IMG/VR virus record: IMGVR_UViG_3300026269_000197
Location: 1-60,579 of that record
Direction: 5' to 3' (one strand)
Origin: a virus
Lineage: Duplodnaviria; Caudoviricetes
Length of the DNA: 60,579 nt
How positions within the stretch are numbered: position 1 is the stretch's first letter; every line of letters begins with the position of its first letter. The translations under genes and the position numbers were made by a program. Under the pieces are notes generated by a model. That model saw only the letters and a list, made by a program, of their open reading frames with translations, was not told the origin of the DNA and did no database searches. Positions 11,681-31,427 of the stretch are shown here, piece after piece.

Positions 11681-11688
11681 AGATGGCG

Positions 11689-11696: not shown

Positions 11697-11718
11697 TTAG
11701 AATAATAGGAAAAGAGAT

Positions 11719-13356: not shown

Positions 13357-13366
13357 TGGGAAGATG

Positions 13367-13374
13367 TATAAATA
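13367..13374 (+). promoter_or_regulatory. T4-type late promoter
   Basis: TATAAATA upstream of gp8. Confidence 0.8.
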
Positions 13375-13398
13375 GTACAAAGAAACAGGAAACAAACA

Positions 13399-14862
13399 AT
13401 GCCAGCGATTATAACAAGTAAATTTAGACGAAATAATGCTCAACAATTTGAGGAATCTTTTGGTGAAGCAAGTCCAAATGTCTATTACCTAGGAATAGGA
13501 AAACCTTCTGCTTTTGGAACTAAAGATAGAGCAGATGGAAGAACAGATAACATAGGAACTGATTCAGCTCCTATTACACCAGCCGATTCAGTACAAGATG
13601 AGTATGATACTTTTGATGATTTACTGGCTGCTAAAAAAATTACTGCTTCAGATGTAGCTTTTGCTGCTCCAAGAATAAATTGGACATCTGGAACAACTTA
13701 CGATATTTACAGACACGACTATGGAAACAGAATAACAGGAACTACTAATGTTCAAACTGCTAATAGTGGTGCAACGAATTTATATGACGCAAATTTCTAT
13801 GCGATGAATTCAAACTTTAAAGTCTATAAATGTTTAGACAACGATAACAATTCTGCTTCAACGGTTGAACCAACAGGAGAAAGTGTTAATATATTAGAAA
13901 CTTCAGATAACTACAAGTGGAAATATATGTTCACTTTATCTGCAAGTGCTCAAGCTAATTTCTTATCAACAGACTTTATGGGAGTTTCAACAAACTCAGC
14001 GGTAACAAGTGCTGCTGTAGATGGAGATTTATCAATTTTAAAAATTAAATCAGCAGGTACAGGTGGTACTGATGGTACACATACAGGTATCGCAATTAGA
14101 GGAGATGGTACTGGCGGAACTTGTTCAATAACTATTGCTTCAGGTGCGGTTACAAATGCTGTGGTTACTGGAACACCAGTTAACTATTCTTTTGGATATG
14201 TTAGAATGGCAGATATAAATGCTGCTGGTGGTGGAAGTTTATCTGGTGCTGAAATAGATGTAATAGCAGAACCAAAAGGTGGACACGGTTCAGACCCATT
14301 TGAAGAATTAGGTGCTTACTTTATAATACTTAATACTTCTTTTGAAGGTGCTGAAACTGCAAACTCTGGAGACTTTGCTACACAAAACGATTTTAGAAGA
14401 GTTGCTTTAATTAGAGACCCTAAATCTGGTGGTTCAGCTGCTAGTACAACAACTTTAAGAGGAACTAAAGCAATTAGATTTAATTCAGGTGCAGGAACTT
14501 TTACTGCTGATGAAAAAATTACACAAACAAATACAGGTGCTATTGGTAAAGTTGTTCAATGGGATGCTGCTAATTTAATTTTATTTTATACACAAACAAG
14601 ATATACTAACGAAGGTGTTGACGCAAATGGCAATATGACTGCTTTTTCAGGAACCAATGTGGTTACTGGAGATAGTGCAAGTACACCAACAGGAACTCCA
14701 ACAGGCACAACTGAAACGGTTAACAATGTTTCTTTAGTTTCAGGTTATTCTGCTTCTGAATTAGACGCTGACTCTGGCGATGTAATGTACATTGAAAATA
14801 GAGCACCAGTAACCAGAAGTGTTGACCAAACGGAGAATGTTAAGTTAATCATAGAATTTTAA
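13399..14862 (+). CDS. gp8: baseplate wedge subunit gp8
   Basis: MPAIIT..FR, VYKCLDN, YKWKYM, PKGGHG....ELG, YIENR.P..R..DQTE..KLIIEF. Confidence 0.88.
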   Translation: MPAIITSKFRRNNAQQFEESFGEASPNVYYLGIGKPSAFGTKDRADGRTDNIGTDSAPITPADSVQDEYDTFDDLLAAKKITASDVAFAAPRINWTSGTTYDIYRHDYGNRITGTTNVQTANSGATNLYDANFYAMNSNFKVYKCLDNDNNSASTVEPTGESVNILETSDNYKWKYMFTLSASAQANFLSTDFMGVSTNSAVTSAAVDGDLSILKIKSAGTGGTDGTHTGIAIRGDGTGGTCSITIASGAVTNAVVTGTPVNYSFGYVRMADINAAGGGSLSGAEIDVIAEPKGGHGSDPFEELGAYFIILNTSFEGAETANSGDFATQNDFRRVALIRDPKSGGSAASTTTLRGTKAIRFNSGAGTFTADEKITQTNTGAIGKVVQWDAANLILFYTQTRYTNEGVDANGNMTAFSGTNVVTGDSASTPTGTPTGTTETVNNVSLVSGYSASELDADSGDVMYIENRAPVTRSVDQTENVKLIIEF

Positions 14863-17800: not shown

Positions 17801-20800
17801 ATAGTTATTCAGGACAAATAGATTACGAAAACATTCCAAATTATACTTCTGACACAACTGGTGCTGAATATAAGTTAAGTGATGTATTAGATTTCAGACC
17901 AAGAGTAGATGACGCTTCAACTATAGACTCTGGTTCACAAAATAGAAGTTATGACGGTACTGGTGCTTCAACGGTTGATGTTGTTAAATTTGGAACAAAT
18001 GTAACCACAGACCACGAATTTTATAAAGGAAGAATAGATAAATTATTCTTAACAAGAGAAGGTGAATTCCAAGTACTTAAAGGAGCTCCTGATGTTAAAC
18101 CACAGGCGCCAGATAAGATTGATAACGCAATGCACCTTTACACAATTTCTTTACCTGCGTATAACTTATCAACCGAAGATGTAGTTTTTGAAACGGTTGA
18201 CAATAGAAGATATACAATGAGAGATATTGGAGCTATTGAAAAGAAAATTGATAGAGTTGAATATTATACTCAATTATCTTTACTAGAAAGTGCTGCTCAA
18301 TCTTTACAAATACAAGACGCTGATGGTTTTGATAGATTTAAAAATGGAATTATTGTAGATAACTTTAAAGGTCACGGAATTGGTCAGGTTACAAGTGGTG
18401 ATTACAGATGTTCAGTAGATATGTCTAAAGGAGAATTAAGACCTCACTTTAACCAACAAGCTGTTGAGGTAGAAGAAATAGATAACGATGGAACGGTTTT
18501 AGTTGACGCTGATAGAACAGCAGCTAACTACATAAAGACTGGTGATTGTTTAACATTACCATATACAGAAACAGATTTAATTAATCAACCTTTTGCTTCT
18601 AAAGCAATTAATATTAACCCTTTCGCTATTTTCAGTTGGATGGGAACACTAGAATTAACTCCTTCAAGTGATGAATGGAGAGAAACACAAAGAACACCTG
18701 AATTAGTAGTTAACTCTACAACAGGTGCTTGGGATCAATTATTAAGACAAGGAAATGTACCTAATCAAAATCAAATAGCTATGGGTACGGTTTGGAACGA
18801 ATGGCAAACAAACTGGACTGGCGCACCAACGCAAGTTTCTTCAACAAGAGTAGGTGGTAGATGGAGAAATGGTAGAGCAATCCAACAACTAACTAATATT
18901 ACTTCTATCAATCAAGTTAACCAAAGTAGAACAGGAATTACAACAACTGCAATACCTCAAACGGTTAGAACAAGTATGGGAGATAGAGTAGTTGATGTTG
19001 CCTTTGTAGCATTTATTAGAAGTAGGGATGTTGCCTTTTCTGGTACAAGAATGAAACCAAATGCTAGAGTTTATCCTTTCTTTGATAATGTAGATATTAC
19101 TTCTTATGTAACCCCAACAGGTGGTTCACTTGGAGGAAATTTGGTTACAGACGCAAATGGTTCCGTATCAGGAACTTTTGCAATACCTGATCCAACTAAC
19201 AATTCTAATCCAAGATGGAGAACAGGTGATAGAACATTTAGATTAACTTCATCAAGTACTAACTCTATGGATGCCGCTGCTGTTGATACGGCCGCAAACG
19301 CTGAATATGTTGCAAGAGGATTATTGAATACGGTTAGAGATACAATTGTTTCAACTAGAGAATTTTCAAATGTGATGACAACGGTAACAGACCAACAAAC
19401 GGTTAATAGAACAAGTACAAGACAAGTAGTACAAACGGTTGGTTGGCACGACCCATTATCACAAACATTTTTAACAGATGAGAAAGGTGGTGTTTCTTTA
19501 ACATCAATAGATTTATATTTCTCAACTAAAGACGCAAACATTCCTGTAACCGTACAAATTAGAAATACGGTTAACGGTTATCCAGGAAGTAAAATACTTC
19601 CATTTGGAGAGGTTACTTTAAATCCAAGTCAAGTTAATACAAGTTCAGACGCTTCAGTAAAAACAACATTTACTTTCCCTAGTCCTGTTTATATACAAGA
19701 CCAAGTAGAGTATGCTTTTGTTGTAATGTCAAACTCAAACGATTATCAAACTTATGTTGCTAGATTAGGTGAAACTGCGATAGGTTCTAGTAGAACAATA
19801 TCAGAACAACCATACGCTGGCGTTATGTTTAAATCTCAAAACGGTTCAACTTGGACTTCTGAACCAAATGAAGATATTAAATTTACAATTAAAAGAGCTG
19901 AATATTCAAATGTAGTTGGAACGGTACATTTAGCTAATAAAGAATTACCTGCTTCAGCTTTAGAACAAAATCCAATTAGAACAACAAATAGTTCTGCTGT
20001 AATTAGAGTATTCCATAAAAATCATAACTTACACGATACGAATTCGTGTATAACTATTGCTGGAGTTCCAGCTGGTATTCATAATGGAATTAATGCAACA
20101 GATATTAATGGAACATATACTTCTATATCAAATATAACTTTAGATAGTTATGATATAACAACTAGTGGAACTGCAAACGCAACTGGAGATATTGGTGGCA
20201 CAGCGGTTACTGCTACACAAAATAGACAATTTGATGTATTGAATTTAGCTGGTCTACAAACATTAGCAGTACCAGGAACTTCAATTGTTCCTTATGTAAG
20301 AACAACAACATCTAAAGCAATTCACGGTTCACAAAGTCCGTATGCTTTAACAACCGAAGTTAATAAACAATCGGTTACTATGGCAGATGATATTTACTTT
20401 ACTCAACCACAGGCAGTTATGTCTCAACCAAATGAGACAACTCGTATGTCAGGTAAAAAATCTTTTTATGTTATAATAGAAATGTCAACTACAAATACAA
20501 AACTAACTCCTGTTATTGACTTAGCAAGAAATAGTGTATTCTGTATTTCAAACAGATTAAATAGTCCAACTTCAAGTAATACACCAGACTTTGTTCCTGA
20601 AACAGCTGCTAGTGATACTTCAGGTGCTTCAAAATATATTATTAAACCTGTTGTATTGGCAAACAACTCAACGGCGTTAGATATTAGATTGACACAATCA
20701 GTTAGAGCTAGTGCTGAAGTAGAAGTTTATTACAGAACAACGAGTGCTGATGAAGTTAGAAATATAAATGATATTAACTGGACAGCATTTAACGGAGATG

Positions 20801-20979
20801 GTAGTGCTGATAAAGCGGTTACTTCTTCTGAAGCTGATGATGACTTTAGAGAGTATCAATATTCTGTAAGTGGTGTAAATACCTTTACTGCATTCCAATT
20901 AAAAATAGTACTAAAAGGAACTAACTCTAGTTATCCTCCAATAGTACGAGATATGAGAGGAATTGCATTGGCAATATAA
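14875..20979 (+). CDS. large virion structural protein (VrlC-like / DUF4815-type)
   Basis: FNLSPYYDDF, LFRP..AVQARELTQ.QSILQNQIE, APGAHR, ARRTYDESGDY, YTMRDIG, RFKNG..VDNF; 2034 aa. Confidence 0.85.
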   Translation: MPSPTDFNLSPYYDDFSESKSFHRILFRPAFAVQARELTQSQSILQNQIEKFGDHIFKSGAQMIPGEITYDLQYYSVKLTSFTGTTTLSDFEGLTLVGQTSAVEAKVMASDIATSTDPNTLYIKYTKTGVGNTTKDFVAGESMVATHGTLGNLTAVCTSSHIGSAASVASGTYYINGFAVGVDQQTIVLDKYTNTPSYRIGLSIAESFVTPNNDASLVDNAQGSSNANAPGAHRFKISLTLAKLALTSIEDSNFIELLRLSDGALQNKVRSSEYGVLEDTFARRTYDESGDYTVRPFDLDVREHLISGDNRGIYTSANGGDATKLALGLSPGKAYVKGYEIDKVGTEFITIDKARTFGSENGFPTKFDVGNFVNVSNVYGSPDVNFITGKVEAYKALQLKLSSPSYTAGTITANNENLVLDIGRAKSKGFEYNASTSSAISGAGAVAPQTTEIFKHFLFDIEMFSHIGITTNTAFTTGEKLTGSTSGATGVVENVSTGTTATIASSTAANPVVITMTADLDIRNGDAIKITGVTTQTELNNNTYYVQQKIGGTAKRDFQLLDSTGTLVDGTAHTGAGTGGSAQTGKVVISNVQGEFSDGETITGGTSSNTAIVKTSVIGNRGFTSYGSSDIKEITMAGTPNYTAQTELSTAYGDNQQLSGSISVSGGGQDVVGFSTKFDTELKVGDSLQFADTGGTITTREVLEIKTSSSLTLASAIGGTAVSNSIAIRRRAKLQEADKNIAIFELPYSTIKTLKTETNSGIADTLFTVRKTFVGTLTSTGDITITANTGETFLSQSERDYSVTIMSKGGSSSAGNVGDKLSTTGNQHEGDAAFTLSGSPVGRTLTLDFGANHQGHEVKIIGTLSKSAQNEKTKTLTSNATTTITTQAACEANVIGLGKADIYSLASVHMAADFSTTPTTSDTDITSRFTLDNGQRDNYYDIGRLKRVDGSLNPTGQLLITFNYFTHGNGDFFSVDSYSGQIDYENIPNYTSDTTGAEYKLSDVLDFRPRVDDASTIDSGSQNRSYDGTGASTVDVVKFGTNVTTDHEFYKGRIDKLFLTREGEFQVLKGAPDVKPQAPDKIDNAMHLYTISLPAYNLSTEDVVFETVDNRRYTMRDIGAIEKKIDRVEYYTQLSLLESAAQSLQIQDADGFDRFKNGIIVDNFKGHGIGQVTSGDYRCSVDMSKGELRPHFNQQAVEVEEIDNDGTVLVDADRTAANYIKTGDCLTLPYTETDLINQPFASKAININPFAIFSWMGTLELTPSSDEWRETQRTPELVVNSTTGAWDQLLRQGNVPNQNQIAMGTVWNEWQTNWTGAPTQVSSTRVGGRWRNGRAIQQLTNITSINQVNQSRTGITTTAIPQTVRTSMGDRVVDVAFVAFIRSRDVAFSGTRMKPNARVYPFFDNVDITSYVTPTGGSLGGNLVTDANGSVSGTFAIPDPTNNSNPRWRTGDRTFRLTSSSTNSMDAAAVDTAANAEYVARGLLNTVRDTIVSTREFSNVMTTVTDQQTVNRTSTRQVVQTVGWHDPLSQTFLTDEKGGVSLTSIDLYFSTKDANIPVTVQIRNTVNGYPGSKILPFGEVTLNPSQVNTSSDASVKTTFTFPSPVYIQDQVEYAFVVMSNSNDYQTYVARLGETAIGSSRTISEQPYAGVMFKSQNGSTWTSEPNEDIKFTIKRAEYSNVVGTVHLANKELPASALEQNPIRTTNSSAVIRVFHKNHNLHDTNSCITIAGVPAGIHNGINATDINGTYTSISNITLDSYDITTSGTANATGDIGGTAVTATQNRQFDVLNLAGLQTLAVPGTSIVPYVRTTTSKAIHGSQSPYALTTEVNKQSVTMADDIYFTQPQAVMSQPNETTRMSGKKSFYVIIEMSTTNTKLTPVIDLARNSVFCISNRLNSPTSSNTPDFVPETAASDTSGASKYIIKPVVLANNSTALDIRLTQSVRASAEVEVYYRTTSADEVRNINDINWTAFNGDGSADKAVTSSEADDDFREYQYSVSGVNTFTAFQLKIVLKGTNSSYPPIVRDMRGIALAI

Positions 20980-20983: not shown

Positions 20984-21208
20984 ATGAGTTCTACAATGAT
21001 TAAAGTAATGAATTTTGACCATTTACAAAGAGATTTAAAATCTAATGCTATTGTAAATACTAGTTCAACTGAATATGAGATATATATTGCTAGAAAACAA
21101 CAAAGAGAATTAGATAAAAATAAAATGCAAGATATGTGTAGAGAAATAAATACTTTAAAGGCAGAATTAATAGAAATTAAAAGGATGATAAAATCAAATG
21201 GCAGTTAG
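20984..21208 (+). CDS. small coiled-coil hypothetical protein
   Basis: LQRDLKSNAIVNT...EINTLKAELIEIK. Typical of the ORF following VrlC-like genes; ATG at 20984. Confidence 0.7.
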   Translation: MSSTMIKVMNFDHLQRDLKSNAIVNTSSTEYEIYIARKQQRELDKNKMQDMCREINTLKAELIEIKRMIKSNGS

Positions 21209-22499
21209 ACAAGTCGCAACGACAGATAGTTTAGATAAATTAAGAACGGAATTTAACGCTCTTGCTTTATCTGATTTTGGAGACATTGCAACACTAGATA
21301 GTTCATTGTCAGCAACTACGGTTATAGGTGCTGTAAATGAAATTAACGCAATCGCAATTGCCGCTGCTGGTTTTACACTAACAGACGGTACAAACAATCA
21401 GGCGGTTGCTTCTGGTAACACATTGACCGTAAGTACTGGTACAGGTTTAGAAGCTATCGTATCATCACCAGATACATTAACAATTAACTTGGATACTAAT
21501 TTAACAGGTTTAACAACTATAGATGTTAATACTTCTGCTGATATTGGAAATATAACTATTTCAAATGGTTCAATTATATCTTCAAGTGGTACAATAGATT
21601 TCGGAAACGAACAATTAAATACAAGTGGTGGAATAACTGCTGGTGGAACGGTAGTAGGTGCTGGTGTAACCATTAATGGTGCTTCAATGAAATTTGAAGG
21701 TGCAACTGCTAACTCTTTTGAAACTACATTAAGAGTTGATGACCCAGGACAAGATAATACAATTACTTTACCAGATAGAAGTGGAACCGTAATCACAACA
21801 GGTGATACAGCTACGGTTACTCAAACAATGATAGCTAATGACGCTGTTAGTACAGACCAAGTTGCTGACACTTCAATAACGGTTGCTAAATTAAAAGATT
21901 TTCCAACTTCAACATTAACCGTAGATACTTTAATTGCAAATAATATTACAGGTACCGCTTCACAATCAAATGCTGTTGCTATTACTGCTGACAACACAGC
22001 AAACGCAACAAGATATATTACTTTTGCTGACGCAACTTCTGGTAACCAAGGATTAAAAACAGATACAGATTTATATTACAATCCTTCAACAAATACATTA
22101 ACAACAACTGCTACAAAAGCAAACTATGCTGACTTGGCAGAAAAATATTTAACTGATAAAGAATATCCAGTAGGTACCGTCTTATGTATAGGTGGTGTTG
22201 CTGAGGTAACTTCTTGTAAACAAAATCATTGTACAAAAGTTGTAGGTGTTGTATCAGAAAAACCTGCTTTCATAATGAATGGAAGTTTAGAAGGAATGTC
22301 TGTCGCTGTTGCATTAACAGGAAGAGTTCCTTGTAGAGTATGTGGACCTGTAAGAAAAGGCGATATGATTGTTAGTTGTGAAAAAGAAGGTTGTGGAAGA
22401 GCAGAAGCAGAACCTAGAACAGGTGCATTAATTGGAAAATCTTTAGTCAATGATGACTCAACAGGAGAAAGAATTGTTGAAATAGTTGTTGGTAAGTAG
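21198..22499 (+). CDS. tail fibre-like protein with C-terminal chaperone/peptidase-like domain
   Basis: Thr/Gly-rich shaft; C-terminal ADLAEKY...VGVVSEKPAFIMN...VALTGRVPCRV..GDMIV..IGKSL. Confidence 0.7.
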   Translation: MAVRQVATTDSLDKLRTEFNALALSDFGDIATLDSSLSATTVIGAVNEINAIAIAAAGFTLTDGTNNQAVASGNTLTVSTGTGLEAIVSSPDTLTINLDTNLTGLTTIDVNTSADIGNITISNGSIISSSGTIDFGNEQLNTSGGITAGGTVVGAGVTINGASMKFEGATANSFETTLRVDDPGQDNTITLPDRSGTVITTGDTATVTQTMIANDAVSTDQVADTSITVAKLKDFPTSTLTVDTLIANNITGTASQSNAVAITADNTANATRYITFADATSGNQGLKTDTDLYYNPSTNTLTTTATKANYADLAEKYLTDKEYPVGTVLCIGGVAEVTSCKQNHCTKVVGVVSEKPAFIMNGSLEGMSVAVALTGRVPCRVCGPVRKGDMIVSCEKEGCGRAEAEPRTGALIGKSLVNDDSTGERIVEIVVGK

Positions 22500-22508: not shown

Positions 22509-22988
22509 ATGGACGAACAAACTCAATTGTGGATTAAACGATTAAAAGACGAAATCCAAAATCATAACAGATACGAAGCAAGACAACTATTTTACATAGA
22601 TGATAATGGACTTGACCGAGAGGTTAAAGAACATATGACTTATGGAGAATGGTTAAGAGAATTTAATAGATTTAAAGTTATTAAGGTGGAAGGTTTAGAA
22701 GATGTCTCTTGGTTAAGAGAAGTTTTAGATGAAGTAGTAAAGAATATCACAGGTAAGACTAGACAAGATATTCATTTATTTGTGAATCAAAAACCAGGTG
22801 TTAGTTTCAAATCTCATAAAGACGACAAAGATGTTTACTTATATGTTGTAAAAGGCAAAAAGAAAGTAAATATGAATAATGAGGTTAAACCGATATATGA
22901 TGATGAAGGAATTATCATTAAACAAGGTGTTGAACACTTTGTTGAAAGTGAAGCTGATACTTGGGGGTTAAGTATTGGAGTTATATAA
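22509..22988 (+). CDS. cupin/JmjC-like oxygenase
   Basis: SFKSHKDDKDVYLYVVKGKK and GVEHFV: H-x-D...H metal triad. Confidence 0.75.
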   Translation: MDEQTQLWIKRLKDEIQNHNRYEARQLFYIDDNGLDREVKEHMTYGEWLREFNRFKVIKVEGLEDVSWLREVLDEVVKNITGKTRQDIHLFVNQKPGVSFKSHKDDKDVYLYVVKGKKKVNMNNEVKPIYDDEGIIIKQGVEHFVESEADTWGLSIGVI

Positions 22989-22990
22989 TA

Positions 22991-24025
22991 ATGAATTGGA
23001 TGTTTTATGTCAAAACAACCGAAACCTGTAATCTAAATTGTAAACATTGTTTTACTTCAGGTACATCTGGACCTAAAGTATATTGGGACACAACAAAGAT
23101 TATTAAATGGTTCAAAGCATTTCGCAAATTTAACTATCACAAAAACGACACAGCACATTTAGAATTTCACGGTGGTGAACCATTTTTGGTTCCTGTATCT
23201 GAAATGGATTATGTGTATGACGCAACTAAAGGATTGTGGGACAATCAATCTTATGGTGTAACCACTAATCTTTGTTTCAAATTAAAACAAGAACACATAG
23301 ATTTTATGAAAGGTCCTCTTGGTGGCAGATGTGGAACATCTTGGGATCCGAAGATTCGTTTTGAGAATGAAAAACAATTAAACTTATGGAGACGAAATGT
23401 TGCTACTTTAGTTGATGAAGGTATAACGGTTAAACTTTTTATATCAGTAACCAAAGATACAATAGCAATTGAGCCAATTGAATTATTGAAATGGGTAAAG
23501 GATTTAGGTGTTAAAGAAATGGCACTTGAAAGATTGACAGGTAATGGTAATGCAAACTTACATCCAGAAATATTCCCACGAAACATAGACCAAGATAAAT
23601 GGTTTTTAAAAATGCACGAGCAGATGATACAATACAATGCTAGAAAGTGGTTTGAAAATGAATTTTTTGAAACTATTTACTCAAAATTTACTGCTGGAGA
23701 CAATACGCAAGGAACTTTCTGTAGAGATTGTGAACAAAAACTATTTACACTAAACGCAACTGGCACAATAGGTGGTTGCCCTAATGCTGCTCCTGAATTT
23801 ACTTTTGGAACGCTAGATGACCCTTTGGATGGTCTTATAAATAGTCCTAAGCGATTACACAATATAGCGTGTGAAGTGGCAAGAAACCCATTGTGTTGGG
23901 AATGTCCAGTTTTCAAGTATTGTGGTGGAGATTGTCACCAATTAGGATGGCAAGGTGATATATGTGGCGCTCCGAAATCACTTATGAAACATTTGGCGCA
24001 AAATAGAAGTGAGGCAATATGGTAA
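22991..24025 (+). CDS. radical SAM protein with SPASM-like domain (rSAM-1)
   Basis: CNLNCKHC, FHGGEP, C-terminal CRDC...GCP...CWECPVFKYCGGDC...C. ATG at 22991. Confidence 0.93.
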   Translation: MNWMFYVKTTETCNLNCKHCFTSGTSGPKVYWDTTKIIKWFKAFRKFNYHKNDTAHLEFHGGEPFLVPVSEMDYVYDATKGLWDNQSYGVTTNLCFKLKQEHIDFMKGPLGGRCGTSWDPKIRFENEKQLNLWRRNVATLVDEGITVKLFISVTKDTIAIEPIELLKWVKDLGVKEMALERLTGNGNANLHPEIFPRNIDQDKWFLKMHEQMIQYNARKWFENEFFETIYSKFTAGDNTQGTFCRDCEQKLFTLNATGTIGGCPNAAPEFTFGTLDDPLDGLINSPKRLHNIACEVARNPLCWECPVFKYCGGDCHQLGWQGDICGAPKSLMKHLAQNRSEAIW

Positions 24026-24792
24026 CATTAACAAGTCCGATAACGGCACAGAACATTGTAGATAGATTTAAAGAATTGGTAACAGATGTAGCTGATACTC
24101 AAATAGTATGGGGTACAGATAGTTTACCAGGACACTCAGCGTTTGCTGCTTCAGATTTTGGTGGAGTAGTAGATGGTATGTCTTTAGTATTAACTAGTGC
24201 TAGTGGAACTTTTACAGCAAGCGAAACGGTTACAGGTTCTATTTCAGGTACGGTAGGTACGGTTGTAGATTATTCTAGTAATACATTAAAAGTTAGAAAT
24301 ATAGTAGCAGGTTCTGGACAAACAAATTTTTTACAAAATGATGTTTTAACTGGTTCTAATTCTGGTGCAAGTGGAACTATTTCAACAATGACAGAAGTAT
24401 CAGCAGTTAGTCTTGGTATATCAGGAACTAATATTGGTACGGTGGGAAGTAATATTAACGCTTTCAACATATACAATACATTAAAAACAGAAATGTTGCT
24501 TTACACTAATATTAAAAATACAAATGCTGTGGTTACAATGACAGGTGCTGGTCAACAATATTCAGATACACAAATTGCACACTTACCAACAGGACAAAGA
24601 ACAAATCCCACAATTTCTCAACCAGGTACATTAACGCAAGGACAAGTTGTTAGTTCAACAAGTATAGAGAGCTTTATGTCATCACTTGCAAGTACATATA
24701 ATACTGAAAGAGGAACAACTTATACATTGACAAAAACTATTTGCCATTCAAGTTGCCACTCTAGTTGCCACGGAAGTAGGAGCAGAAGATAA
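24019..24792 (+). CDS. putative virion protein and rSAM substrate with C-terminal (CHxS)3 tail
   Basis: Thr/Ser/Gly-rich body with baseplate-type repeats (FTASETVTGSISG, FLQNDVLTGSNSGASG); ends ICHSSCHSSCHGSRSRR. The function is inferred. Confidence 0.7.
   Translation: MVTLTSPITAQNIVDRFKELVTDVADTQIVWGTDSLPGHSAFAASDFGGVVDGMSLVLTSASGTFTASETVTGSISGTVGTVVDYSSNTLKVRNIVAGSGQTNFLQNDVLTGSNSGASGTISTMTEVSAVSLGISGTNIGTVGSNINAFNIYNTLKTEMLLYTNIKNTNAVVTMTGAGQQYSDTQIAHLPTGQRTNPTISQPGTLTQGQVVSSTSIESFMSSLASTYNTERGTTYTLTKTICHSSCHSSCHGSRSRR
24742..24777 (+). repeat. 3 x 12-bp coding repeat encoding CHSS-CHSS-CHGS
   Basis: TGCCATTCAAGT TGCCACTCTAGT TGCCACGGAAGT. Synonymous divergence between units implies selection at the protein level. 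Confidence 0.9.
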
Positions 24793-25484
24793 TGATTGAA
24801 ACTATAGTACCAATTGATTTAAAGAATTTAAAAAAATATTTTGAAGATAAATCTGAAAGTTATATGATAGATTATGAAAAGAGTAAATTAAAAGGTGCTC
24901 AATTCTTAACTTATATAAGCAATTTAGATATACCTTGCGATATATTAAACTATGATGATGAATTACTATTATCATATTTTGAAACACAAATGTTAGTAAG
25001 TATACCGATGTTAGAAAGAGTTGCTATGCAAGTTCTTTTTGAACATAAAGGTTTAGAGAAAAATGTACTTCACGGTGCTTTTATTTCTCAAAATTTAGAG
25101 ATAATAGAAGAATGGGCAAACAAATTAGAAAGTCTGCCTTTATACAATATGTCTATTGTAGGAGAAGGTGCTTTTAAAGATTTTGTTGAGACTTATCCTA
25201 AAGATGAGACTAATGATGTAAAAGGTATTAATTTTGTTAGTCTATTGAAACATACAGATTTTTATTCTTATTATAATAAAACTAACGAAAAGAATGTTAA
25301 GTATTATACTAAATACTTTACAGAATATATGTTTAAAGGCAAAAGTCTATTTGATTATTGGGGTGTAAAAGAAAACCCTATGTTTTTAATGACTTGGGCA
25401 GTTGCTGAAGGAAAGTTTGATACTAAAAAATATAACGAAGCTAAAAAAGCTGATATAGGAAGATTAAATGCTACACCTGTTTAA
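24792..25484 (+). CDS. hypothetical protein in the rSAM cluster
   Basis: Translationally coupled (TAATG) to 24019..24792; no motif recognised. Confidence 0.75.
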   Translation: MIETIVPIDLKNLKKYFEDKSESYMIDYEKSKLKGAQFLTYISNLDIPCDILNYDDELLLSYFETQMLVSIPMLERVAMQVLFEHKGLEKNVLHGAFISQNLEIIEEWANKLESLPLYNMSIVGEGAFKDFVETYPKDETNDVKGINFVSLLKHTDFYSYYNKTNEKNVKYYTKYFTEYMFKGKSLFDYWGVKENPMFLMTWAVAEGKFDTKKYNEAKKADIGRLNATPV

Positions 25485-26583
25485 TAAAGTTTATTTACAA
25501 TTTGATGACTCAATAGATTGTCATACAAATAGATATGTTATTTCCGAAGAAAAAGGAAATCCAATGCTATCAGAATTAGGTAGTGCTTATAGAGGCACAC
25601 TAATTAACTATGCTAAAAATAGAAATGAAATGCAAGGTAAGTTTGACGACTTAACTGGTTTCTTTGAAGATGTATGTACTAAACAAAAATCATTAAATAG
25701 TAAAGTTGTTATATATTGCGACACACAAGCATTTTTAGAATTATCTGTTATCTGGTTAAAAACTATCTTACCTTTTGGTGATAGTGATAGTATTGTTAAA
25801 TACCTAGACATACATTTACACAACGAAAGAATTATTACAAATACACAATGTCAACCAACACATATTTTAGACTTAACTAAACTGAATGCAGGTTTAGGAG
25901 ATGTTAAAGGATATGCTGATGTTTTACCTACTTTAGAATTAGATAGAATTAAAGCGCTTAATTTAAATTTCTCAATTGAATTATTGCTTGGAGAGTATTT
26001 TGCTGGTGCTGATACACACGAAGACAATTTACTTTCCTCTTATCATATGTTCTTAAAAAGATTTTATAAAGAGATATTAACAGATGTTAGAGAAGATACA
26101 TTATTAAATCTTTTAAATAAATCGCAACAAACTGCTGTAGGTTATTCTGATAGTGATGTTGTAATAAATGCTGATAACCCTTTTGAAGGAATTACAGAAT
26201 TGGCTGCCTTTGCTGATACGGATGTCTTTACGGCGAAACCTGTTGCAAATGCTGGATATGTGAATACAATAACTATAGATAATTTGTCAAGTGAAAAACA
26301 AACTGCATTAAAAACTATAATTAACACAATACAAACACTACAAAATATTCCAAATCCAGATTACTCAATGGCAAATTTTGATAAAGCGTGTCAGACATCT
26401 TTATCTAAAAGTGATTTTGATACAATAATTAATGAAGCGGTGGCGAATAGTCCATCTTTGGCGTATATTCCAAGATTTGATATTGGTAATGTTAATTACT
26501 CTTTTATTCAATATCTACTTTCTTTAAAGAAAGATAACGATTCAAGTACGCTAGGGAAATACAGACTATTCGCAAACTCGTAG
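25468..26583 (+). CDS. hypothetical protein in the rSAM cluster
   Basis: 371-aa ORF overlapping its upstream neighbour; no motif recognised. Confidence 0.75.
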   Translation: MLHLFNKVYLQFDDSIDCHTNRYVISEEKGNPMLSELGSAYRGTLINYAKNRNEMQGKFDDLTGFFEDVCTKQKSLNSKVVIYCDTQAFLELSVIWLKTILPFGDSDSIVKYLDIHLHNERIITNTQCQPTHILDLTKLNAGLGDVKGYADVLPTLELDRIKALNLNFSIELLLGEYFAGADTHEDNLLSSYHMFLKRFYKEILTDVREDTLLNLLNKSQQTAVGYSDSDVVINADNPFEGITELAAFADTDVFTAKPVANAGYVNTITIDNLSSEKQTALKTIINTIQTLQNIPNPDYSMANFDKACQTSLSKSDFDTIINEAVANSPSLAYIPRFDIGNVNYSFIQYLLSLKKDNDSSTLGKYRLFANS

Positions 26584-26591: not shown

Positions 26592-27644
26592 ATGCGTGAG
26601 TTTTTAATAGACCCCAAAAGAGACCCCGAGCAGGAGTACACAATTCATTTATTTGAATTTTGTAATTTAAGATGTGCTTTCTGTTGGCAAAACCACGAAG
26701 ACACGGTTGGAATAGATACCGTAATCAATAAATTAATTCCCGTAGAAAAATTTATCAAACACGAATTGATGATGAGTGTTGTATTTAATATTATGGGTGG
26801 CGAAGTCTTTGCACCTGCCATCTACAATAAAGAATTAAATCACGCTTATAAAACTTTATCAAAAGGCATACAAAAGATATGTGAACGATATGATAAGAAA
26901 GTTAGAATTAATTGGGTTACTAATTTGATTATGAGTGATGAAGGTAATGAGTTATTAAGAGATTTATTAAGTTGGTCTGAACACGAAGGTATTGAAGCAA
27001 CAATTACTACAAGTTATGATCCTAGAGGAAGATTTAGTAAAACAGATTTAGAACGATTTAAACAACAAGTAATCTATTGGGGAAAAGAAATAAAATCTTT
27101 TTCAATGTTAATAACTAAACCAATGATAAAGTATCATTTAGAACAAGGTGACCCATACTTTAAACACTTATATGACCAAGGTTATGAAATTTATTTTGAT
27201 TACTATACACCAGACCAACACGCAAAATTTTTTATGCCAAGTGATACAGAATTATTAAAGTTCTTTAAGTATATAATAGATAACTATCCAAATTGTTCTC
27301 CTGTAAGAGAATGGATATTTAAGAAAAGAAATTATGCTAGTTGTAGAACAAGTAAATTGATATTACAAGATAATACATTATGTCAATGTGGTAATCTTGT
27401 ACAGGACCCAAAAGATTTAGTAATGTATAGTTCTCCTATAAAGAAAAAAGACAACTCAATTATTGAAAATAAATTTTTAGAAAAATATAATTGTGCTAGT
27501 TGTGAATTTTTAGATAGATGTACTTTAGGTTGCTTTATGAACCACGATTATAAATGGAGGGAAGAATTGGATGAATGTGTTTACAAACTTACGCACAGAT
27601 ATATTGAAAATGTACGAGTACAAAGAAACTTTATCGCAACCTGA
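26592..27644 (+). CDS. radical SAM protein with SPASM-like domain (rSAM-2)
   Basis: CNLRCAFC, MGGE, C-terminal C...CQC...CASCEFLDRCTLGC...C. Confidence 0.92.
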   Translation: MREFLIDPKRDPEQEYTIHLFEFCNLRCAFCWQNHEDTVGIDTVINKLIPVEKFIKHELMMSVVFNIMGGEVFAPAIYNKELNHAYKTLSKGIQKICERYDKKVRINWVTNLIMSDEGNELLRDLLSWSEHEGIEATITTSYDPRGRFSKTDLERFKQQVIYWGKEIKSFSMLITKPMIKYHLEQGDPYFKHLYDQGYEIYFDYYTPDQHAKFFMPSDTELLKFFKYIIDNYPNCSPVREWIFKKRNYASCRTSKLILQDNTLCQCGNLVQDPKDLVMYSSPIKKKDNSIIENKFLEKYNCASCEFLDRCTLGCFMNHDYKWREELDECVYKLTHRYIENVRVQRNFIAT

Positions 27645-28206
27645 TATTTCAAAACTTAAAATTAACAATACAGACATTGAAATACAATTAGATAAATTTC
27701 CAGTTCAGAAACCATTTATACCTAGAATAGATGGTAGACAAGCACATTTATTTTTATGGTTAGGTAAGAAAGAAGATGATATTGAAACTTACAATCTAGC
27801 AGAAAAGAATATAGGTGAAAAGATGTGGGTACATAATAAAACACCTAATACTTTTATAAAAGGTGTAGGTATGTTTCATATCTATGATGAGTATGTTATA
27901 GTAGGGTCTTTAAAGTATCCTGGTTATATGCGAAGTAAAAGTCCAGTAGAAAGAAGAAGATTGATAAGAACAATGTGGTGTGAAACAATTAATATATTTA
28001 AAGATAGAAGAATATTATGTCCTACAGGAACTTATTTTGATTATTTACATTTATCTATGAATCAAATGAAGGCACAAAAAGAACCTTATCATAGAGAGAT
28101 AATGCAACAATTTGGTTTTGAAAAAGATGTTATATATGACCACTTTTGGATTAGAGATAAAGATACAAAAACTGGTTTAAATTGGATTGAATTATATGGA
28201 GATTAA
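27610..28206 (+). CDS. hypothetical protein in the rSAM cluster
   Basis: ORF track 27571..28206; the likely start is MYEYKE at 27610. Confidence 0.7.
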   Translation: MYEYKETLSQPDISKLKINNTDIEIQLDKFPVQKPFIPRIDGRQAHLFLWLGKKEDDIETYNLAEKNIGEKMWVHNKTPNTFIKGVGMFHIYDEYVIVGSLKYPGYMRSKSPVERRRLIRTMWCETINIFKDRRILCPTGTYFDYLHLSMNQMKAQKEPYHREIMQQFGFEKDVIYDHFWIRDKDTKTGLNWIELYGD

Positions 28207-28774
28207 ATTTACAGATACGATAAATGTTTTTGACGATTTCTTAACTGATAAAGTGTTAATTAATAAGTTAAAAAAAGAAAGTAAAATTGATACTACAATT
28301 AAAGGACAAGATACATTTAATTTTACGCCTTGTCAAAAAGAATTTTCTAAAATTGCAAATGCAACATTGATAAACTATTGTCTATCAAATAATATAGATT
28401 ATAATAATTTAGAGTTATCTAATTTTCAAAAAGGTAGATTAAAGAAGTATGATAAGTCTAGTGTGACCAATCATTTATATGAACCACACCACGACCAAGT
28501 TGAAGGTGCTTTTATTTCTGCAATCTATTATATAGATAGTGATTATACACCTGAAAAATGGGTAGGTGGTGAATTAAGTATATACAAAAATTTAACCTTT
28601 GCTGAATACCCAAATAACACCATAAACATAGAACCTATACCTAATAGACTGATAATGTTTCCTGGGTTTCTAGTACATAGAGTTAAACCATACTTCGGAG
28701 AAAATCCTAGAACATCTTTAGTATTAGGATGGGAAGTAAAAGACCAACCAAAAACTGAACCGATATGGATTTAA
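28187..28774 (+). CDS. 2OG-Fe(II) oxygenase (prolyl-hydroxylase-like)
   Basis: PHHD...SAIYY...GGEL...PNRLIMFP..LVHRV...R. Confidence 0.88.
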   Translation: MNYMEIKFTDTINVFDDFLTDKVLINKLKKESKIDTTIKGQDTFNFTPCQKEFSKIANATLINYCLSNNIDYNNLELSNFQKGRLKKYDKSSVTNHLYEPHHDQVEGAFISAIYYIDSDYTPEKWVGGELSIYKNLTFAEYPNNTINIEPIPNRLIMFPGFLVHRVKPYFGENPRTSLVLGWEVKDQPKTEPIWI

Positions 28775-29853
28775 TAATTAAACCAACTGAATTATGTAAT
28801 TTCAAATGTACATTTTGTTCAAGTACTCAACTAACAAAAGAGAAAAAGAATTGGTTGAAACACGAACAAATATTTGAGTTCTTAACAAGATTTCCTCATA
28901 CTAAAACTATTATAGTAAATGGTGGGGATCCTTTGATGATGGAACCTGAATACTATTGGAAGATTATTAGATGGTTAGATGAAAGAGATTATGCAACATC
29001 AATTTCTCTAACAACAAACTTATGGCCGTTCTTAAAGAAACCTAGTTTGTGGGTAGACTTATTTAATGATAAAAGAATAGGAGTAACCACTTCTTTTCAA
29101 TATGGTGGTGGAAGATTAAAAGGAGACTTTACAGAATTTACGGAAGACGACTTTTGGCAATGTTCAGACGCAATGTTAAAGTATTGTGATTATAGACCAG
29201 ACTTTATTTCTGTTATAACAAAAGAAAACAAACACAATGCAATTAAAAATGTTGAGTTAGCAAAGTTTATGTCAGAAGATAGAGAACCAGAAGGTACTTT
29301 ACATAATTTATATAGAGAAGAAAAAACTGGTGTTGAATGTAAATTAAATTATGCAATGGCAAGTGGTGACCAAAAAGAACCATTTTTATTATCAGATATA
29401 TATGAGATATATACTAAAATATATAATCAAGGTTTAGCACCTTGGGAATTTAATACGAAACAAATGATGTTGACTATTAAAGATTGTAGTACTACTTGTC
29501 CTTTAAGTAGAAAGTGTGATGAAGGTATAAGATGTTTACAACCCGATGGAGACTATTATAGTTGTGGTGCTTTTGGTGATGATAGAGATAAAGAAATAGA
29601 TTTTAAAAGAGAAATGAAAGGTGAGTTTTTTACACCTTTACAAGATGACCTTTCATTAAATAGTATGAAAAAATCTTGTTATATTTGTCCAATGTTTAAT
29701 ATATGTAATGGTTGTAGAAAGACAATAAAAGATTATCAACACGCTGGAGTAATAGAGAAACATTGTGAGAAGATGAAACGAATAGGACCTGATATACTAA
29801 AAGCAAATGGCAGTACTTTACAAATGACACCATATATAAGTGAGGCACAATGA
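28765..29853 (+). CDS. radical SAM protein with SPASM domain (rSAM-3)
   Basis: IKPTELCNFKCTFC, NGGDP, CP...C...DGDYYSC...CYICPMFNICNGC...C. Confidence 0.93.
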   Translation: MDLIIKPTELCNFKCTFCSSTQLTKEKKNWLKHEQIFEFLTRFPHTKTIIVNGGDPLMMEPEYYWKIIRWLDERDYATSISLTTNLWPFLKKPSLWVDLFNDKRIGVTTSFQYGGGRLKGDFTEFTEDDFWQCSDAMLKYCDYRPDFISVITKENKHNAIKNVELAKFMSEDREPEGTLHNLYREEKTGVECKLNYAMASGDQKEPFLLSDIYEIYTKIYNQGLAPWEFNTKQMMLTIKDCSTTCPLSRKCDEGIRCLQPDGDYYSCGAFGDDRDKEIDFKREMKGEFFTPLQDDLSLNSMKKSCYICPMFNICNGCRKTIKDYQHAGVIEKHCEKMKRIGPDILKANGSTLQMTPYISEAQ

Positions 29854-30371
29854 TAAAAACTAGTAATAATATAGAAAATGTTTTAATCAATGGAGTTTGG
29901 CCTACAGCAGACCCATTGCCGTTTAGATTTTTTGAAGGTGTTGAAATACCATTTAAAAGTTTAGAAGGTTATAAAGTAGCAGTACATACTCCAGAAGTTG
30001 AGAATGCTCTCAAAATGTGCCATACTTATTTGGGTAATAAATATATTAAACAATTGTCTAATAAGTATAACTTATATGGTCAACCAGAAATAGTTAACGG
30101 AGTAGACAAAGGTTCGTTGAATTGGCATAATGATAATAAAGAAGGAGCAAATATTGCTGCTATTATCTATTTCACTTCAGCAAGTAATCCTGATACAGGA
30201 GGACAATTAGAAGTAAGAAGTAAGGACAACAAAAGTTTATCTGCATACTTGTACCCAGGCAAGACAGATGTAGTATTATTAAACCACGCTAAACAATGGG
30301 AACATAGAGTTGGAGAATTTAAACCAATAGGTGTTGAACGAATAGCAGGATATTTTGACTATAATATATGA
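29850..30371 (+). CDS. 2OG-Fe(II) oxygenase
   Basis: WHND...IIYF...GGQL...WEHRV...R. Confidence 0.82.
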   Translation: MIKTSNNIENVLINGVWPTADPLPFRFFEGVEIPFKSLEGYKVAVHTPEVENALKMCHTYLGNKYIKQLSNKYNLYGQPEIVNGVDKGSLNWHNDNKEGANIAAIIYFTSASNPDTGGQLEVRSKDNKSLSAYLYPGKTDVVLLNHAKQWEHRVGEFKPIGVERIAGYFDYNI

Positions 30372-30472
30372 GTGAATTAGAATTTTTTAAATTTATACAA
30401 CAAATGGAAAAAGAAGTATACGGTATTACTCCATTCTTTGAGGAATTAGATTATGACGAAACAGAAAATTAA
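30368..30472 (+). CDS. small acidic peptide (34 aa)
   Basis: Hand-translated MSELEFFKFIQQMEKEVYGITPFFEELDYDETEN. ATGA overlap with the oxygenase stop; fills the gap to rSAM-4. Confidence 0.5.
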   Translation: MSELEFFKFIQQMEKEVYGITPFFEELDYDETEN

Positions 30473-31427
30473 TTTATCAATTAATCCATCTTATCATTGT
30501 AATTTTAGATGTTCTTGGTGTTATCTTACACCTAAACAATTAGGTGACACTAAAACTATAAGTGATGAAAGATTAAATGAATTACTAGCAGAAGTTTCTG
30601 CTCATAGAGAAATTAATCATATTGATTTATATGGTGGTGAGATTGGTCTATTAAAGAAAGAACAATTAAAGAACATCACAGAAGTTATTAGATTATATTA
30701 TAAAGATAAAATCAATATCAATACAAACCTTTCCGTATTAAGAGAAGAATTTTTTTATCCTGAATATTATTTAAGTGTATCTTGGGATTTAGAAACTAGA
30801 CAAGACTTTATTAAAGTTAGAGAGAATATGGCGAAACTGCCAGTTGACTTTTCTCTATTATGTTTAGCAACAAAAGAAGTAATGCACCATTCCGTAGAAC
30901 ACTTTTGGTCTATGATTAATAGAATTAACTTTGAATCTGAAAAAGCAAATCGTGGTAAATCTCATTTAAAAAGTGTAGAAGTAAAACCTTATAGTGCTAA
31001 TCAAGCAAATGACCAAGAAGTAACCCACGCACAATACGAAGACTATATTTTAAAATTACTAGAAATGGAAAGTTCATTGAAAAAAGGTAAATATGAATTT
31101 GTAAATAAAAAGAAAGTAATTGCTTCTTTAAATAAAGAATATAACGCATTTAGCGATGACCATTTATATATTACACCAAACGGTAAGTTCGCTGTATTAG
31201 AATTTGATAAAGATAATAGAGAATACTTTTTAGAATTAAATAGTTTTGAAGAATATGAAAATTGGTGTAAAAAAGAAAAAGAGAAAACAATATCACCTAT
31301 ATGTAAGAGTTGTGAATATCTAGGAGGTTGTTTAACAGAACATTATCAATATGTCAAAGATTTAGATAATGGTTGTAATGGATATAGGTATCTATTGGAT
31401 ACTTATGAAATGAGATATGGCAAATAG
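30453..31427 (+). CDS. radical SAM protein (rSAM-4) with reduced SPASM-like tail
   Basis: CNFRCSWC, YGGE, C-terminal CKSCEYLGGC...C. Confidence 0.92.
   Translation: MTKQKINLSINPSYHCNFRCSWCYLTPKQLGDTKTISDERLNELLAEVSAHREINHIDLYGGEIGLLKKEQLKNITEVIRLYYKDKININTNLSVLREEFFYPEYYLSVSWDLETRQDFIKVRENMAKLPVDFSLLCLATKEVMHHSVEHFWSMINRINFESEKANRGKSHLKSVEVKPYSANQANDQEVTHAQYEDYILKLLEMESSLKKGKYEFVNKKKVIASLNKEYNAFSDDHLYITPNGKFAVLEFDKDNREYFLELNSFEEYENWCKKEKEKTISPICKSCEYLGGCLTEHYQYVKDLDNGCNGYRYLLDTYEMRYGK

Follow-up and report, generated by a model that had tools for sequence, protein, structure and literature searches.

The DNA described here, called the window below, is the entire IMG/VR virus record IMGVR_UViG_3300026269_000197 (Duplodnaviria; Caudoviricetes), 60,579 bases long with an estimated completeness of 37%. 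All of its large open reading frames (ORFs) lie on the + strand. The subject is a short C-terminal tail on one of the encoded proteins, together with the radical S-adenosylmethionine (SAM) enzymes encoded beside it, which may act on it. The tail-bearing gene (24019..24792, +) encodes 257 residues in its ORF translation, and the protein matches no Pfam or NCBIfam family. Its C-terminus consists of three Cys-His-x-Ser repeats followed by Arg-x-Arg-Arg (R-x-R-R). This Cys-His tail, CHSSCHSSCHGSRSRR, is encoded at 24742..24789 (+) and is recognised by translation, by pattern and in homologues.

The tail gene stands in a module of enzyme and accessory genes. The first of these encodes a cupin-fold protein of 159 residues (22509..22988, +) that scores 24.5 bits against Cupin_2, under the cut-off of 27.2. 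The next is rSAM_A (22961..24025, +), a radical SAM protein with a full SPASM domain, identified by invariant motifs and by the family TIGR04085; its last 7 nucleotides, the stop included, are shared with the beginning of the tail gene. On the other side, the start of the conserved partner gene orf230 (24792..25484, +; phrog_20767) overlaps the tail-gene stop by one nucleotide, in the sequence TAATG. The module continues with orf371 (25468..26583, +), a conserved gene that is syntenic in related loci and matches no Pfam, NCBIfam or PHROG family, and with rSAM_B (26592..27644, +), a radical SAM paralogue assigned to phrog_1802 that scores 23.8 bits against PF04055, under the cut-off. It then contains orf211 (27571..28206, +), syntenic in closer relatives only; a first 2-oxoglutarate (2OG)-Fe(II) oxygenase (28187..28774, +; PF13640, 35.9 bits against a cut-off of 27); the paralogue rSAM_C (28765..29853, +; phrog_1802; PF04055, 30.2 bits against a cut-off of 29.5); a second 2OG-Fe(II) oxygenase (29850..30371, +; PF13640, 29.7 bits against 27); and the fourth radical SAM paralogue, rSAM_D (30453..31427, +; PF04055, 31.4 bits).

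The C-terminal stretch of the 257-residue protein reads TKTICHSSCHSSCHGSRSRR, followed by the stop. The first tail Cys is codon 242, which starts at 24742, and the stop codon occupies 24790-24792; the interval 24742..24792 comprises 16 tail codons plus the stop, exactly as a first-pass annotation of this DNA had placed it. That annotation had also described all three Cys and three of the five His as lying within the last 16 residues, in a period-4 repeat with a basic end, and the translation agrees in every detail. Cys occurs at 242, 246 and 250, each within the tail, and His at 39, 186, 243, 247 and 251. At the nucleotide level, the pattern TGYCAY-N6-TGYCAY-N6-TGYCAY is found once in the 60,579-base window and in none of 100 dinucleotide-preserving shuffles.

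The tail is highly conserved among homologues. A word-indexed search returned 271 homologues at E<=0.01, and ends were scored in the best 120 of the 271. The sequence ends in CH..CH..CH..R.RR in 112 of these 120; of the other eight, six are truncated or chimeric products of contig ends and two carry one substitution. A family profile of 65 members, compared with 1.84 billion cluster representatives, matches 629 of them at E<=1e-3 and 281 at E<=1e-10. The strict motif ends 136 of the best 150 of the 629 representatives. The remaining 14 are truncated, frameshifted or rare variants; examples of the last are tails in which one more Gly precedes RxRR and tails of two Cys-His units. No complete family member lacking such a tail was seen among the homologues and representatives inspected. 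Homologues fall into two size classes, of 257 and of 177-190 residues, the larger having an insert of about 80 residues. A comparison with the 'phages' collection, from which T4-like marine phage records seem to be missing, gave no match to the tail protein, to one of its homologues or to 10 kb of the window.

The tail persists even where the body of the protein has diverged beyond the reach of BLASTP, as the sequences of Ralstonia phage RSL2, Agrobacterium phage Atu_ph07 and Bdellovibrionota chromosomes indicate. Jumbo phages of Sinorhizobium, Agrobacterium, Ralstonia, Burkholderia and Pseudomonas encode orthologues of rSAM_A at 41-51% identity. In RSL2 and Atu_ph07, the rSAM_A orthologue (45-50% identity) is followed immediately by a gene that ends CHSSCHTSCHGSRGRR or CHSSCHASCHNSRSRR. 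These genes are RSL2 ORF068 (186 residues), which ends VCHSSCHTSCHGSRGRR, and Atu_ph07 gp170 (296 residues), which ends FCHSSCHASCHNSRSRR. When these two proteins are compared by BLASTP with the window protein and with each other, the alignment is confined to the tail or extends about 30 residues beyond it. The bodies are still related by profile, with an hhalign probability of 98.6% over 124 columns for a Bdellovibrionota member, and by fold, since Foldseek finds Atu_ph07 gp170 at E 4e-4.

Individual positions of the repeat differ in their constraints. They were tabulated over 252 unique tail contexts, part of which were collected by the motif itself; in that part the Cys, the His and three Arg are fixed by the pattern, and their invariance counts only in the homology-derived sets. 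Position 3 is unconstrained, with Ala, Ser, Thr, Gly, Tyr and others, and Gly is frequent there. Position 4 is Ser in 231, 214 and 225 of the 252 tails in repeats 1, 2 and 3, respectively. Its other residues are Asn, Ala, Gln, Asp, Lys and Arg, and neither Gly nor Pro occurs in any of the 756 cells. Directly before the first Cys stands Val, Ile or Leu, and the residues ahead of it alternate between polar and hydrophobic in a beta-strand-like manner. Judged from these alignments, the tail carries constraints, at position 4 and in RxRR, beyond those expected of metal ligands.

Synonymous choice is free across 167 distinct 51-nucleotide tails from related loci: TGT and TGC, CAT and CAC, AGY and TCN for Ser, and AGR and CGN for Arg all occur. 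Because synonymous codons, including both Ser and both Arg families, interchange freely, the tail is under selection as a peptide and not as DNA.

Repeat number and body Cys were counted over 295 unique sequences. Three repeats are present in 292 and four in 3, and the body is without Cys in 228. Variable repeat number was considered as a sign of iterative processing and was dropped, since 292 of the 295 sequences carry exactly three repeats. The four-repeat variants are three proteins, at loci L060, L068 and L110. At another locus (L059:3907-4266, -), one protein has two full Cys-His blocks: CH..CH..CH.., four residues, and then CH..CH..CH..RGRR.

The tail also keeps company with the same enzymes. 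Of 28 related viral loci, 25 include upstream DNA; in every one of these rSAM_A immediately precedes the tail gene, and the rest of the block keeps its order. A motif-only DNA scan of viral contigs found at least 119 stretches, 116 of them with a real tail ORF. Among the matches listed, a homologue of rSAM_A to rSAM_D occurs within the fetched locus at 95 of these 116 viral loci, and an orf230 homologue at 87 of the 116; in the 95, the distance from the tail gene to the nearest radical SAM gene is at most 100 bp in 75 and at most 2 kb in 89. The same enzyme set as in the window is present in RSL2 and Atu_ph07. For instance, cupin homologues are found upstream of rSAM_A in both phages and in many viral loci.

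A motif-only scan of one genome per prokaryote species gave 47 stretches, of which 39 are real tails and 8 are low-complexity or non-family sequences. Radical SAM homologues are found within the 8-kb locus for 34 of the 39, in varied gene orders. Contigs titled as Bdellovibrionota-type predators account for 27 of the 39 tails and include contigs of 1.3 to 2.8 Mb. In the Bdellovibrionota loci the gene order is rearranged and the same enzyme set, the orf230 homologue included, is retained. On one of the 27 Bdellovibrionota chromosomes, the one inspected, the module lies between two housekeeping genes, encoding a serine dehydratase and an Mrp/NUBPL-type ATPase. It contains four radical SAM regions (D-, C-, B- and A-like) and a second, weaker rSAM_B-like region, as well as two 2OG oxygenases, a JmjC/cupin protein, an orf230 homologue and a Peptidase_S74 fibre protein.

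The association of tail and enzymes thus outlasts divergence of the body, rearrangement of the genes and a change of host life-style, which is the main argument for a direct functional link. According to the first-pass annotation, loss of the motif in homologues, or a wide spread of the motif without radical SAM neighbours, would have told against its proposal. As the counts above show, the best homologues and representatives keep the motif, and radical SAM genes accompany it at most viral and genome loci.

Motif conservation in rSAM_A was read from an alignment of 41 sequences. The cluster motif CxxxCxxC (C23, C27 and C30) and the SAM-binding GGEP (71-74) are invariant in all of them. The SPASM domain is defined by a seven-Cys motif, CX9-15GX4C ... 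CX2CX5CX3C ... C. In rSAM_A the corresponding residues are invariant, as C257-x10-G268-x4-C273, C312-x2-C315-x5-C321-x3-C325 and C335; C254 is nearly so, and conserved C-terminal Cys number eight. The protein fits the seven-Cys motif and scores 28.3 bits against TIGR04085, above the cut-off of 27. Against PF04055 it scores 23.7 bits, under the cut-off of 29.5. The generic SPASM domain is the sole curated family threshold reached among the maturase-type models tested.

The fold of the tail-bearing protein was predicted with AlphaFold2 from the family alignment (pLDDT, the predicted local distance difference test, 85.2; predicted template modelling score, pTM, 0.70). The predicted body is an alpha/beta fold into which a beta-barrel of about 80 residues (about 53-127) is inserted. 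The tail, with pLDDT 63 and then 49, leaves the last predicted beta strand (residues 235-241), and in the model it would be an exposed, flexible end of a confidently folded protein. In a PDB fold search with this model nothing scored below E 0.07. A search of BFVD matches the tail protein to family members, to cyanophage structural and fibre proteins and to gp53-like baseplate proteins. The insert resembles repeated domains of the cyanophage structural and fibre proteins, and the match of the whole protein to gp53-like baseplate wedge proteins is weak (E 6e-4 to 3e-3).

These matches, together with the position of the gene among baseplate and fibre genes, are indirect support for a putative structural role in the virion. 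T4-like baseplate wedge genes, assigned by family matches, occupy 7268..14862 (+). They are followed by a giant structural protein of 2034 residues with DUF4815 (14875..20979, +), and tail-fibre genes lie at 36570..40556 (+), with the terminase further on. The tail protein is not named in the main texts of the Atu_ph07, FLC6, RP12/RP31 and S13 papers, whose supplementary tables may hold virion-proteome entries.

The tail is constant, exposed, constrained beyond metal ligands and inherited with a fixed set of radical SAM enzymes and oxygenases; because of this, an enzyme-substrate relation is the simplest reading. The coupling of the tail gene to rSAM_A and orf230 through overlapping ends also favours it. 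On sequence grounds, the tail of this folded baseplate- or fibre-module protein is probably a substrate that the adjacent enzymes modify covalently. The first-pass annotation had called the tail a likely core peptide. The sequence data agree with action of the neighbouring radical SAM enzymes on it; the term core peptide is loose, as the tail sits on a folded protein of 257 residues. A strict precursor of a ribosomally synthesised and post-translationally modified peptide would be a short leader-core peptide freed by a protease. Here the carrier is a full-size folded protein, no leader or RRE domain was found, and Pfam, PHROG and NCBIfam scans of the module proteins revealed no peptidase family.

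The following mechanism can be proposed. The 257-residue protein would be a folded product of the baseplate and tail-fibre block of a T4-like marine phage, with its last 16 residues as the substrate site. The enzyme set would consist of rSAM_A, three further radical SAM paralogues, the orf230 protein, the cupin and the two 2OG-Fe(II) oxygenases. In the cytoplasm, these enzymes would act on the exposed, flexible tail once the protein has already folded, and the body and the basic RxRR end would stand in for a leader peptide. A 5'-deoxyadenosyl radical would take a hydrogen within each repeat, leading to a new covalent bond, and the oxygenases may then hydroxylate the product. The outcome would be a small, rigid, basic and possibly metal-binding C-terminal knot, used in the assembly or function of the fibre or baseplate.

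Small peptides are known to be matured by radical SAM enzymes, and so are a few proteins, namely sulfatases, HxsA and CrpA. Action of such enzymes on protein-sized substrates with repeated motifs has precedent in two described systems, HXS (PMC13128918) and CrpA/CrpC (PMC13692751), as far as the available portions of these reports go. The first of these is the HXS antiphage system, in which HxsA is matured by the radical SAM enzymes HxsB and HxsC together with HxsD (Nat Commun 2026, PMC13128918, in the portion available). According to the same portion of that report, a change of +8 Da maps to SHRSS and requires the His and both flanking Ser (PMC13128918).

The module resembles HXS in having a protein-sized substrate, short repeats with His-x-Ser and several radical SAM enzymes with a small accessory protein. 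In HXS, a site-specific covalent change falls within a repeat of a basic region, and the tail region of the module is likewise basic and repeated. The differences are considerable. The phage tail has an invariant Cys in each repeat, a period of 4 and a place at the extreme C-terminus, followed by RxRR. The carrier in HXS is a periplasmic peptidoglycan-binding defence effector, whereas here it is a phage tail-module protein that is also found in predatory bacteria, and the module has four radical SAM enzymes plus oxygenases. The tail protein contains H-x-S three times, in the tail; it has no NCBIfam or Pfam match at E<=0.01 and thus falls outside the HxsA family, which combines His-Xaa-Ser repeats with a peptidoglycan-binding domain. 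For HxsB (TIGR03978), rSAM_A scores 35.9 bits against a cut-off of 370, and for HxsC (TIGR03977), rSAM_C scores 31.7 against 267.9. No HxsD partner was found, orf230, orf371 and orf211 being without NCBIfam matches.

The second precedent is CrpA/CrpC of Methanococcus voltae, in which a SPASM radical SAM enzyme installs ranthionine thioethers on a Cys-rich protein (PMC13692751, portion available). CrpC matches the proposed role of rSAM_A as a SPASM enzyme whose full-size protein substrate repeats a Cys motif towards its C-terminus. In the available text, the cross-links of CrpA join Cys to a residue about three positions on (C-x-x-D/Q), a spacing like the C-x-x-X of the tail. CrpC has an RRE domain and belongs to TIGR04463, and rSAM_A has neither. 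The CrpA repeat is 17 residues long and occurs ten times, with no His and no phage context, in contrast to the period-4, His-containing repeats of the tail.

A third comparison is with the anaerobic sulfatase-maturating enzyme, anSME, a radical SAM enzyme that modifies protein-sized substrates, the sulfatases, at the motif C/S-x-P/A-x-R. Among solved structures, that of anSME (4k37) is the only one whose sequence can be aligned with rSAM_A from end to end (profile 11-318 to chain 12-333, E 1.5e-8). The alignments of CteB and of 8vpo to rSAM_A begin only after about 100 N-terminal residues of those structures. The radical SAM core of rSAM_A starts at about residue 11, compared with residue 104 in CteB, so rSAM_A has no space for an RRE-type domain. 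In size, in the lack of an RRE domain and in its combination of radical SAM core and SPASM domain, anSME (PDB 4k36-4k39) is like rSAM_A, and its action on a protein at a short Cys/Ser motif ending in Arg is like the proposed role. The target motif differs at +1 and +2, and no sulfatase is present here. The last repeat of the tail, with the Arg after it, is C-H-[G/S/T/N]-[S/A/N]-R; compared with the sulfatase motif, its Cys, +3 and +4 fit and +2 does not. Against TIGR03942, the anaerobic sulfatase maturase family, rSAM_A scores 35.5 bits, with a cut-off of 349.45.

Scores against other maturase families are equally low. They are 32.6 bits against 340 for PapB (NF047865) and 18.9 against 425 for the SCIFF maturase (TIGR03974), the ranthipeptide and SCIFF types, alongside the missing RRE domain; 18.9 against 350 for the CXXX-repeat peptide maturase (TIGR04115); and, for the triceptide maturases, 16.6 against 450 for XyeB, 23.1 against 370 for FxsB and 26.6 against 445 for YhhB. 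Against DynA, rSAM_A scores 37.7 bits, about a tenth of the cut-off. The triceptide and CXXX-repeat maturases are like the proposed system in the iterative action of radical SAM/SPASM enzymes on short repeated motifs, and the CXXX-repeat family, going by its NCBIfam name, shares with the tail a Cys at every fourth residue. Their substrates are short leader-core peptides, unlike the folded structural-module protein found here. The system would be a case of a protein matured by radical SAM enzymes at a repeated motif, by a set that reaches none of the defining scores of the maturase families compared here beyond the generic SPASM class.

Several points weigh against the tail being the substrate of these enzymes. 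Judged from its sequence, rSAM_A is without an RRE domain, and no radical SAM protein of the module reaches the score of a characterised maturase family, so that the chemistry cannot be transferred by homology. Among the matches listed, 21 of the 116 viral loci have no radical SAM gene in the fetched stretch; 18 of these 21 belong to a short subclass of 125-140 residues, mostly tandem pairs after a fibre-like gene, and the other 3 are short or edge loci. In the six loci of the short subclass, among the same matches, where a radical SAM gene is seen, it lies 4.7-7.4 kb away. Co-inheritance, moreover, is evidence of a functional link and says nothing about which component acts on which. Finally, Cys and His are classical metal ligands, and three repeats in 292 of 295 sequences fit a defined metal site as well as a substrate. 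The tail could be an unmodified metal site at the end of a fibre or baseplate protein, in which three Cys and three His per chain, or a multiple of these in an oligomer, bind Zn, Fe or an Fe-S cluster, with the radical SAM enzymes acting elsewhere. The invariant Cys and His with a free position 3, the 228 of 295 bodies without Cys and the place of the gene between baseplate wedge and tail-fibre genes all agree with such a site, and His motifs bind iron in T4 gp37 and in phage spike tips. It would leave unexplained the Ser-like, never-Gly position 4, the conserved R-x-R-R and the presence of the same adjacent radical SAM set through complete divergence of the body and rearrangement of gene order, and it is judged unlikely, though still the most serious rival. 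Modification and metal binding are compatible, and a modified tail could still bind metal. Another explanation makes the tail a docking or assembly handle, for fibre attachment or as a subunit of the enzyme complex, while the radical SAM and oxygenase set modifies another target, such as a Cys-rich fibre protein or a small molecule. A fibre-like gene does stand beside the module in the window (21198..22499), where its product has a Cys-rich C-terminal domain, as well as in Atu_ph07, on the Bdellovibrionota chromosome (Peptidase_S74) and in the short tandem subclass. The near-invariant element over all lineages is the tail and not the fibre, and among the matches listed 75 of 95 loci have their nearest radical SAM gene no more than 100 bp from the tail gene; a docking handle is accordingly quite improbable. 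The first-pass annotation had further suggested covalent attachment of heme or bilin to the tail, supplied by the phage's own heme oxygenase and bilin reductase. The window does encode both enzyme types, with genes about 27 kb from the tail. None of five other tail-bearing genomes encodes either family (the complete RSL2 and Atu_ph07 genomes and three Bdellovibrionota assemblies), and attachment of a tetrapyrrole, unsupported by gene co-occurrence in these genomes, is very improbable.

Two further alternatives are nested within modification of the tail by its neighbours and concern the chemistry. In the first, which the first-pass annotation had also put forward as three-residue cyclophanes, each H-x-S would be cross-linked or altered at His and Ser, as a three-residue cyclophane or a change of the HXS type, with some other part for the Cys. 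His-containing motifs do occur among such products, for instance in a synthase of His-C2-to-Lys-C-beta cyclophanes (PMC11499958, portion available). The H-x-S inside every repeat and the sub-threshold matches to HxsB (35.9 bits) and HxsC (31.7 bits) point in this direction; both matches reach a tenth of the required score (370 and 267.9) and fall in the generic radical SAM core, the equally invariant Cys would be left without a role, and position 4 is sometimes Ala, Asn or Asp. As an account of the locus as a whole, a His-centred change has a low probability. The second alternative, absent from the first-pass annotation, is suggested by the likeness of rSAM_A to anSME: Cys (or Ser) would be oxidised to C-alpha-formylglycine in at least the last repeat, giving a reactive aldehyde for covalent linkage. 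The full-length alignment of rSAM_A with anSME alone, at the same size and without the N-terminal domain of CteB and 8vpo, speaks for it, as do the eight conserved C-terminal Cys and the last repeat C-H-G-S-R, which has C, S(+3) and R(+4) in common with the sulfatase motif. The TIGR03942 score is far under its cut-off, +2 is Gly, Ser, Thr (or Asn) and not Pro or Ala, and Arg follows just one of the three repeats, all of which make formylglycine, taken over the whole locus, a slim prospect. If the tail is indeed modified, the favoured though still tentative chemistry is a thioether from the Cys sulfur to the C-beta (or C-alpha) of position 4 in each repeat. One such ring per repeat is preferred because the Cys is invariant, position 4 always has a C-beta and the C-x-x-X spacing matches CrpA. 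Under the same assumption, some other chemistry would be less likely than the thioether, a His-centred cross-link or HXS-like change less likely again, and oxidation of Cys to formylglycine, at least in the last repeat (CHGSR), the least likely of the four.

On a wider and more speculative view, several unrelated phage lineages and the predatory Bdellovibrionota might share one undescribed pathway. In it, four radical SAM enzymes and iron oxygenases would covalently cross-link the invariant (Cys-His-x-Ser)3-RxRR terminus of a protein associated with the fibre or baseplate. The resulting knot, possibly loaded with metal, would be needed to attack the envelope of prey or host. This proposal is possible but doubtful; on it, a protein of virus particles would for the first time be seen to carry a modification made by radical SAM enzymes.

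If modification of the tail is real, virions or attack fibres would gain a new covalent chemistry. The system would be widespread, as the 629 cluster representatives matched by the profile range over predatory bacteria, marine T4-like phages and the jumbo phages of plant-associated bacteria. It would also account for the recurrent and hitherto puzzling groups of radical SAM and 2OG oxygenase genes that marine myoviruses carry in their host-recognition regions. With a substrate motif of 16 residues and enzymes of about 350, the question is directly testable. A complex prediction of rSAM_A (with three 4Fe-4S clusters and SAM) and residues 205-257 of the tail protein, run without controls, scored 0.30, against a mark of 0.32, and weighs on neither side.

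Searches of the full-text literature yielded no description of the tail or the module, and no report of radical SAM maturation for phage structural-module proteins was found in them. A study of pelagimyophages describes radical SAM cassettes in the host-recognition cluster and, in the portion available, leaves them unexplained (PMC7029224). Likewise, the available portions of papers on carrier phages list radical SAM, cupin and 2OG genes without comment (PMC8066314, PMC5468394, PMC11898562).

Several further features of the module can be described. The AlphaFold2 model of the orf230 protein is of good quality (pLDDT 88.6, pTM 0.83), and a PDB fold search with it gave no match, the best E being 0.34. 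It is a conserved module protein whose predicted fold apparently has no PDB counterpart. Homologues of rSAM_B occur in jumbo phages and Bdellovibrionota. The best-conserved radical SAM paralogue of the set is rSAM_C, with 52-61% identity to copies in Bdellovibrionota, jumbo phages and elsewhere; a PDB sequence search with it gave no match. Homologues of rSAM_D, with 39-50% identity, are found in Bdellovibrionota, Atu_ph07 and other loci. Comparison of the module proteins with the defence models of PADLOC-DB 2.0 gave no length-wide match, only short matches of N-terminal radical SAM cores to pVip at 22-36 bits.

The fibre-like protein (21198..22499, +; 433 residues) is encoded directly upstream of the module and identified by PHROG tail-fibre matches. 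Its Cys-rich C-terminal domain also precedes tail-bearing genes in other phages. Eight Cys lie within its last 100 or so residues, and the domain could be a second substrate or a metal domain.

In the short subclass of tail-bearing proteins, tandem copies both end in the same Cys-His tail, and the radical SAM gene lies several kb away or beyond the fetched stretch. The subclass is found at the viral loci L078, L103, L111, L116, L131, L136, L140, L150, L152, L154, L155, L163, L165, L167 and L175 and at the genome loci L048, L058 and L075; the window itself does not contain it. Three loci from metagenome-assembled genomes (MAGs), titled Rickettsiales (L040), Methanobacteriota (L077) and Marinovum (L039), carry a phage-type module with 42-81% identity to the window proteins. 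Their contigs look like phage contigs binned into MAGs.

The heme oxygenase of the window (51449-52045, +; PF01126, 81.4 bits) lies beside the ferredoxin-dependent bilin reductase (52230-52784, +), a family match to PF05996 at 69.7 bits, and the pair falls within 51446..52796. Genes for these two enzymes are typical auxiliary genes of marine cyanophage-like myoviruses. Two large proteins encoded near the tail-fibre genes (40583..43801 and 48384..50579, both +) match PHROGs named "regulator of chromosome condensation", with RCC1-like beta-propeller repeats.

Possible expression signals were found ahead of the tail gene. A candidate T4-late-promoter-like box, TATAAATA, lies at 23836..23843 (+), 183 nucleotides upstream of the tail-gene ATG and inside rSAM_A, over codons L-I-N-S. 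All 25 related loci keep it, at -176 to -183 from the tail gene. The window as a whole shows no excess of the box, with 12 copies against 12.15 expected; all 12, from 1238 to 54180, are on the + strand, as are all the large genes. In two studies, RNA-library contigs start at 23849 and 23871 and run to about 24060; a third study covers 23786-24058, and there are scattered pieces elsewhere. Such contigs show no transcription, starts or levels, and the parts they do not cover carry no meaning. As a promoter sign for the tail gene, the box and the contig starts together are a weak hint. The contigs of all three studies stop at 24058-24063, about 40 nucleotides into the tail gene, and these shared ends may reflect strain variation that breaks assemblies, or an RNA feature.

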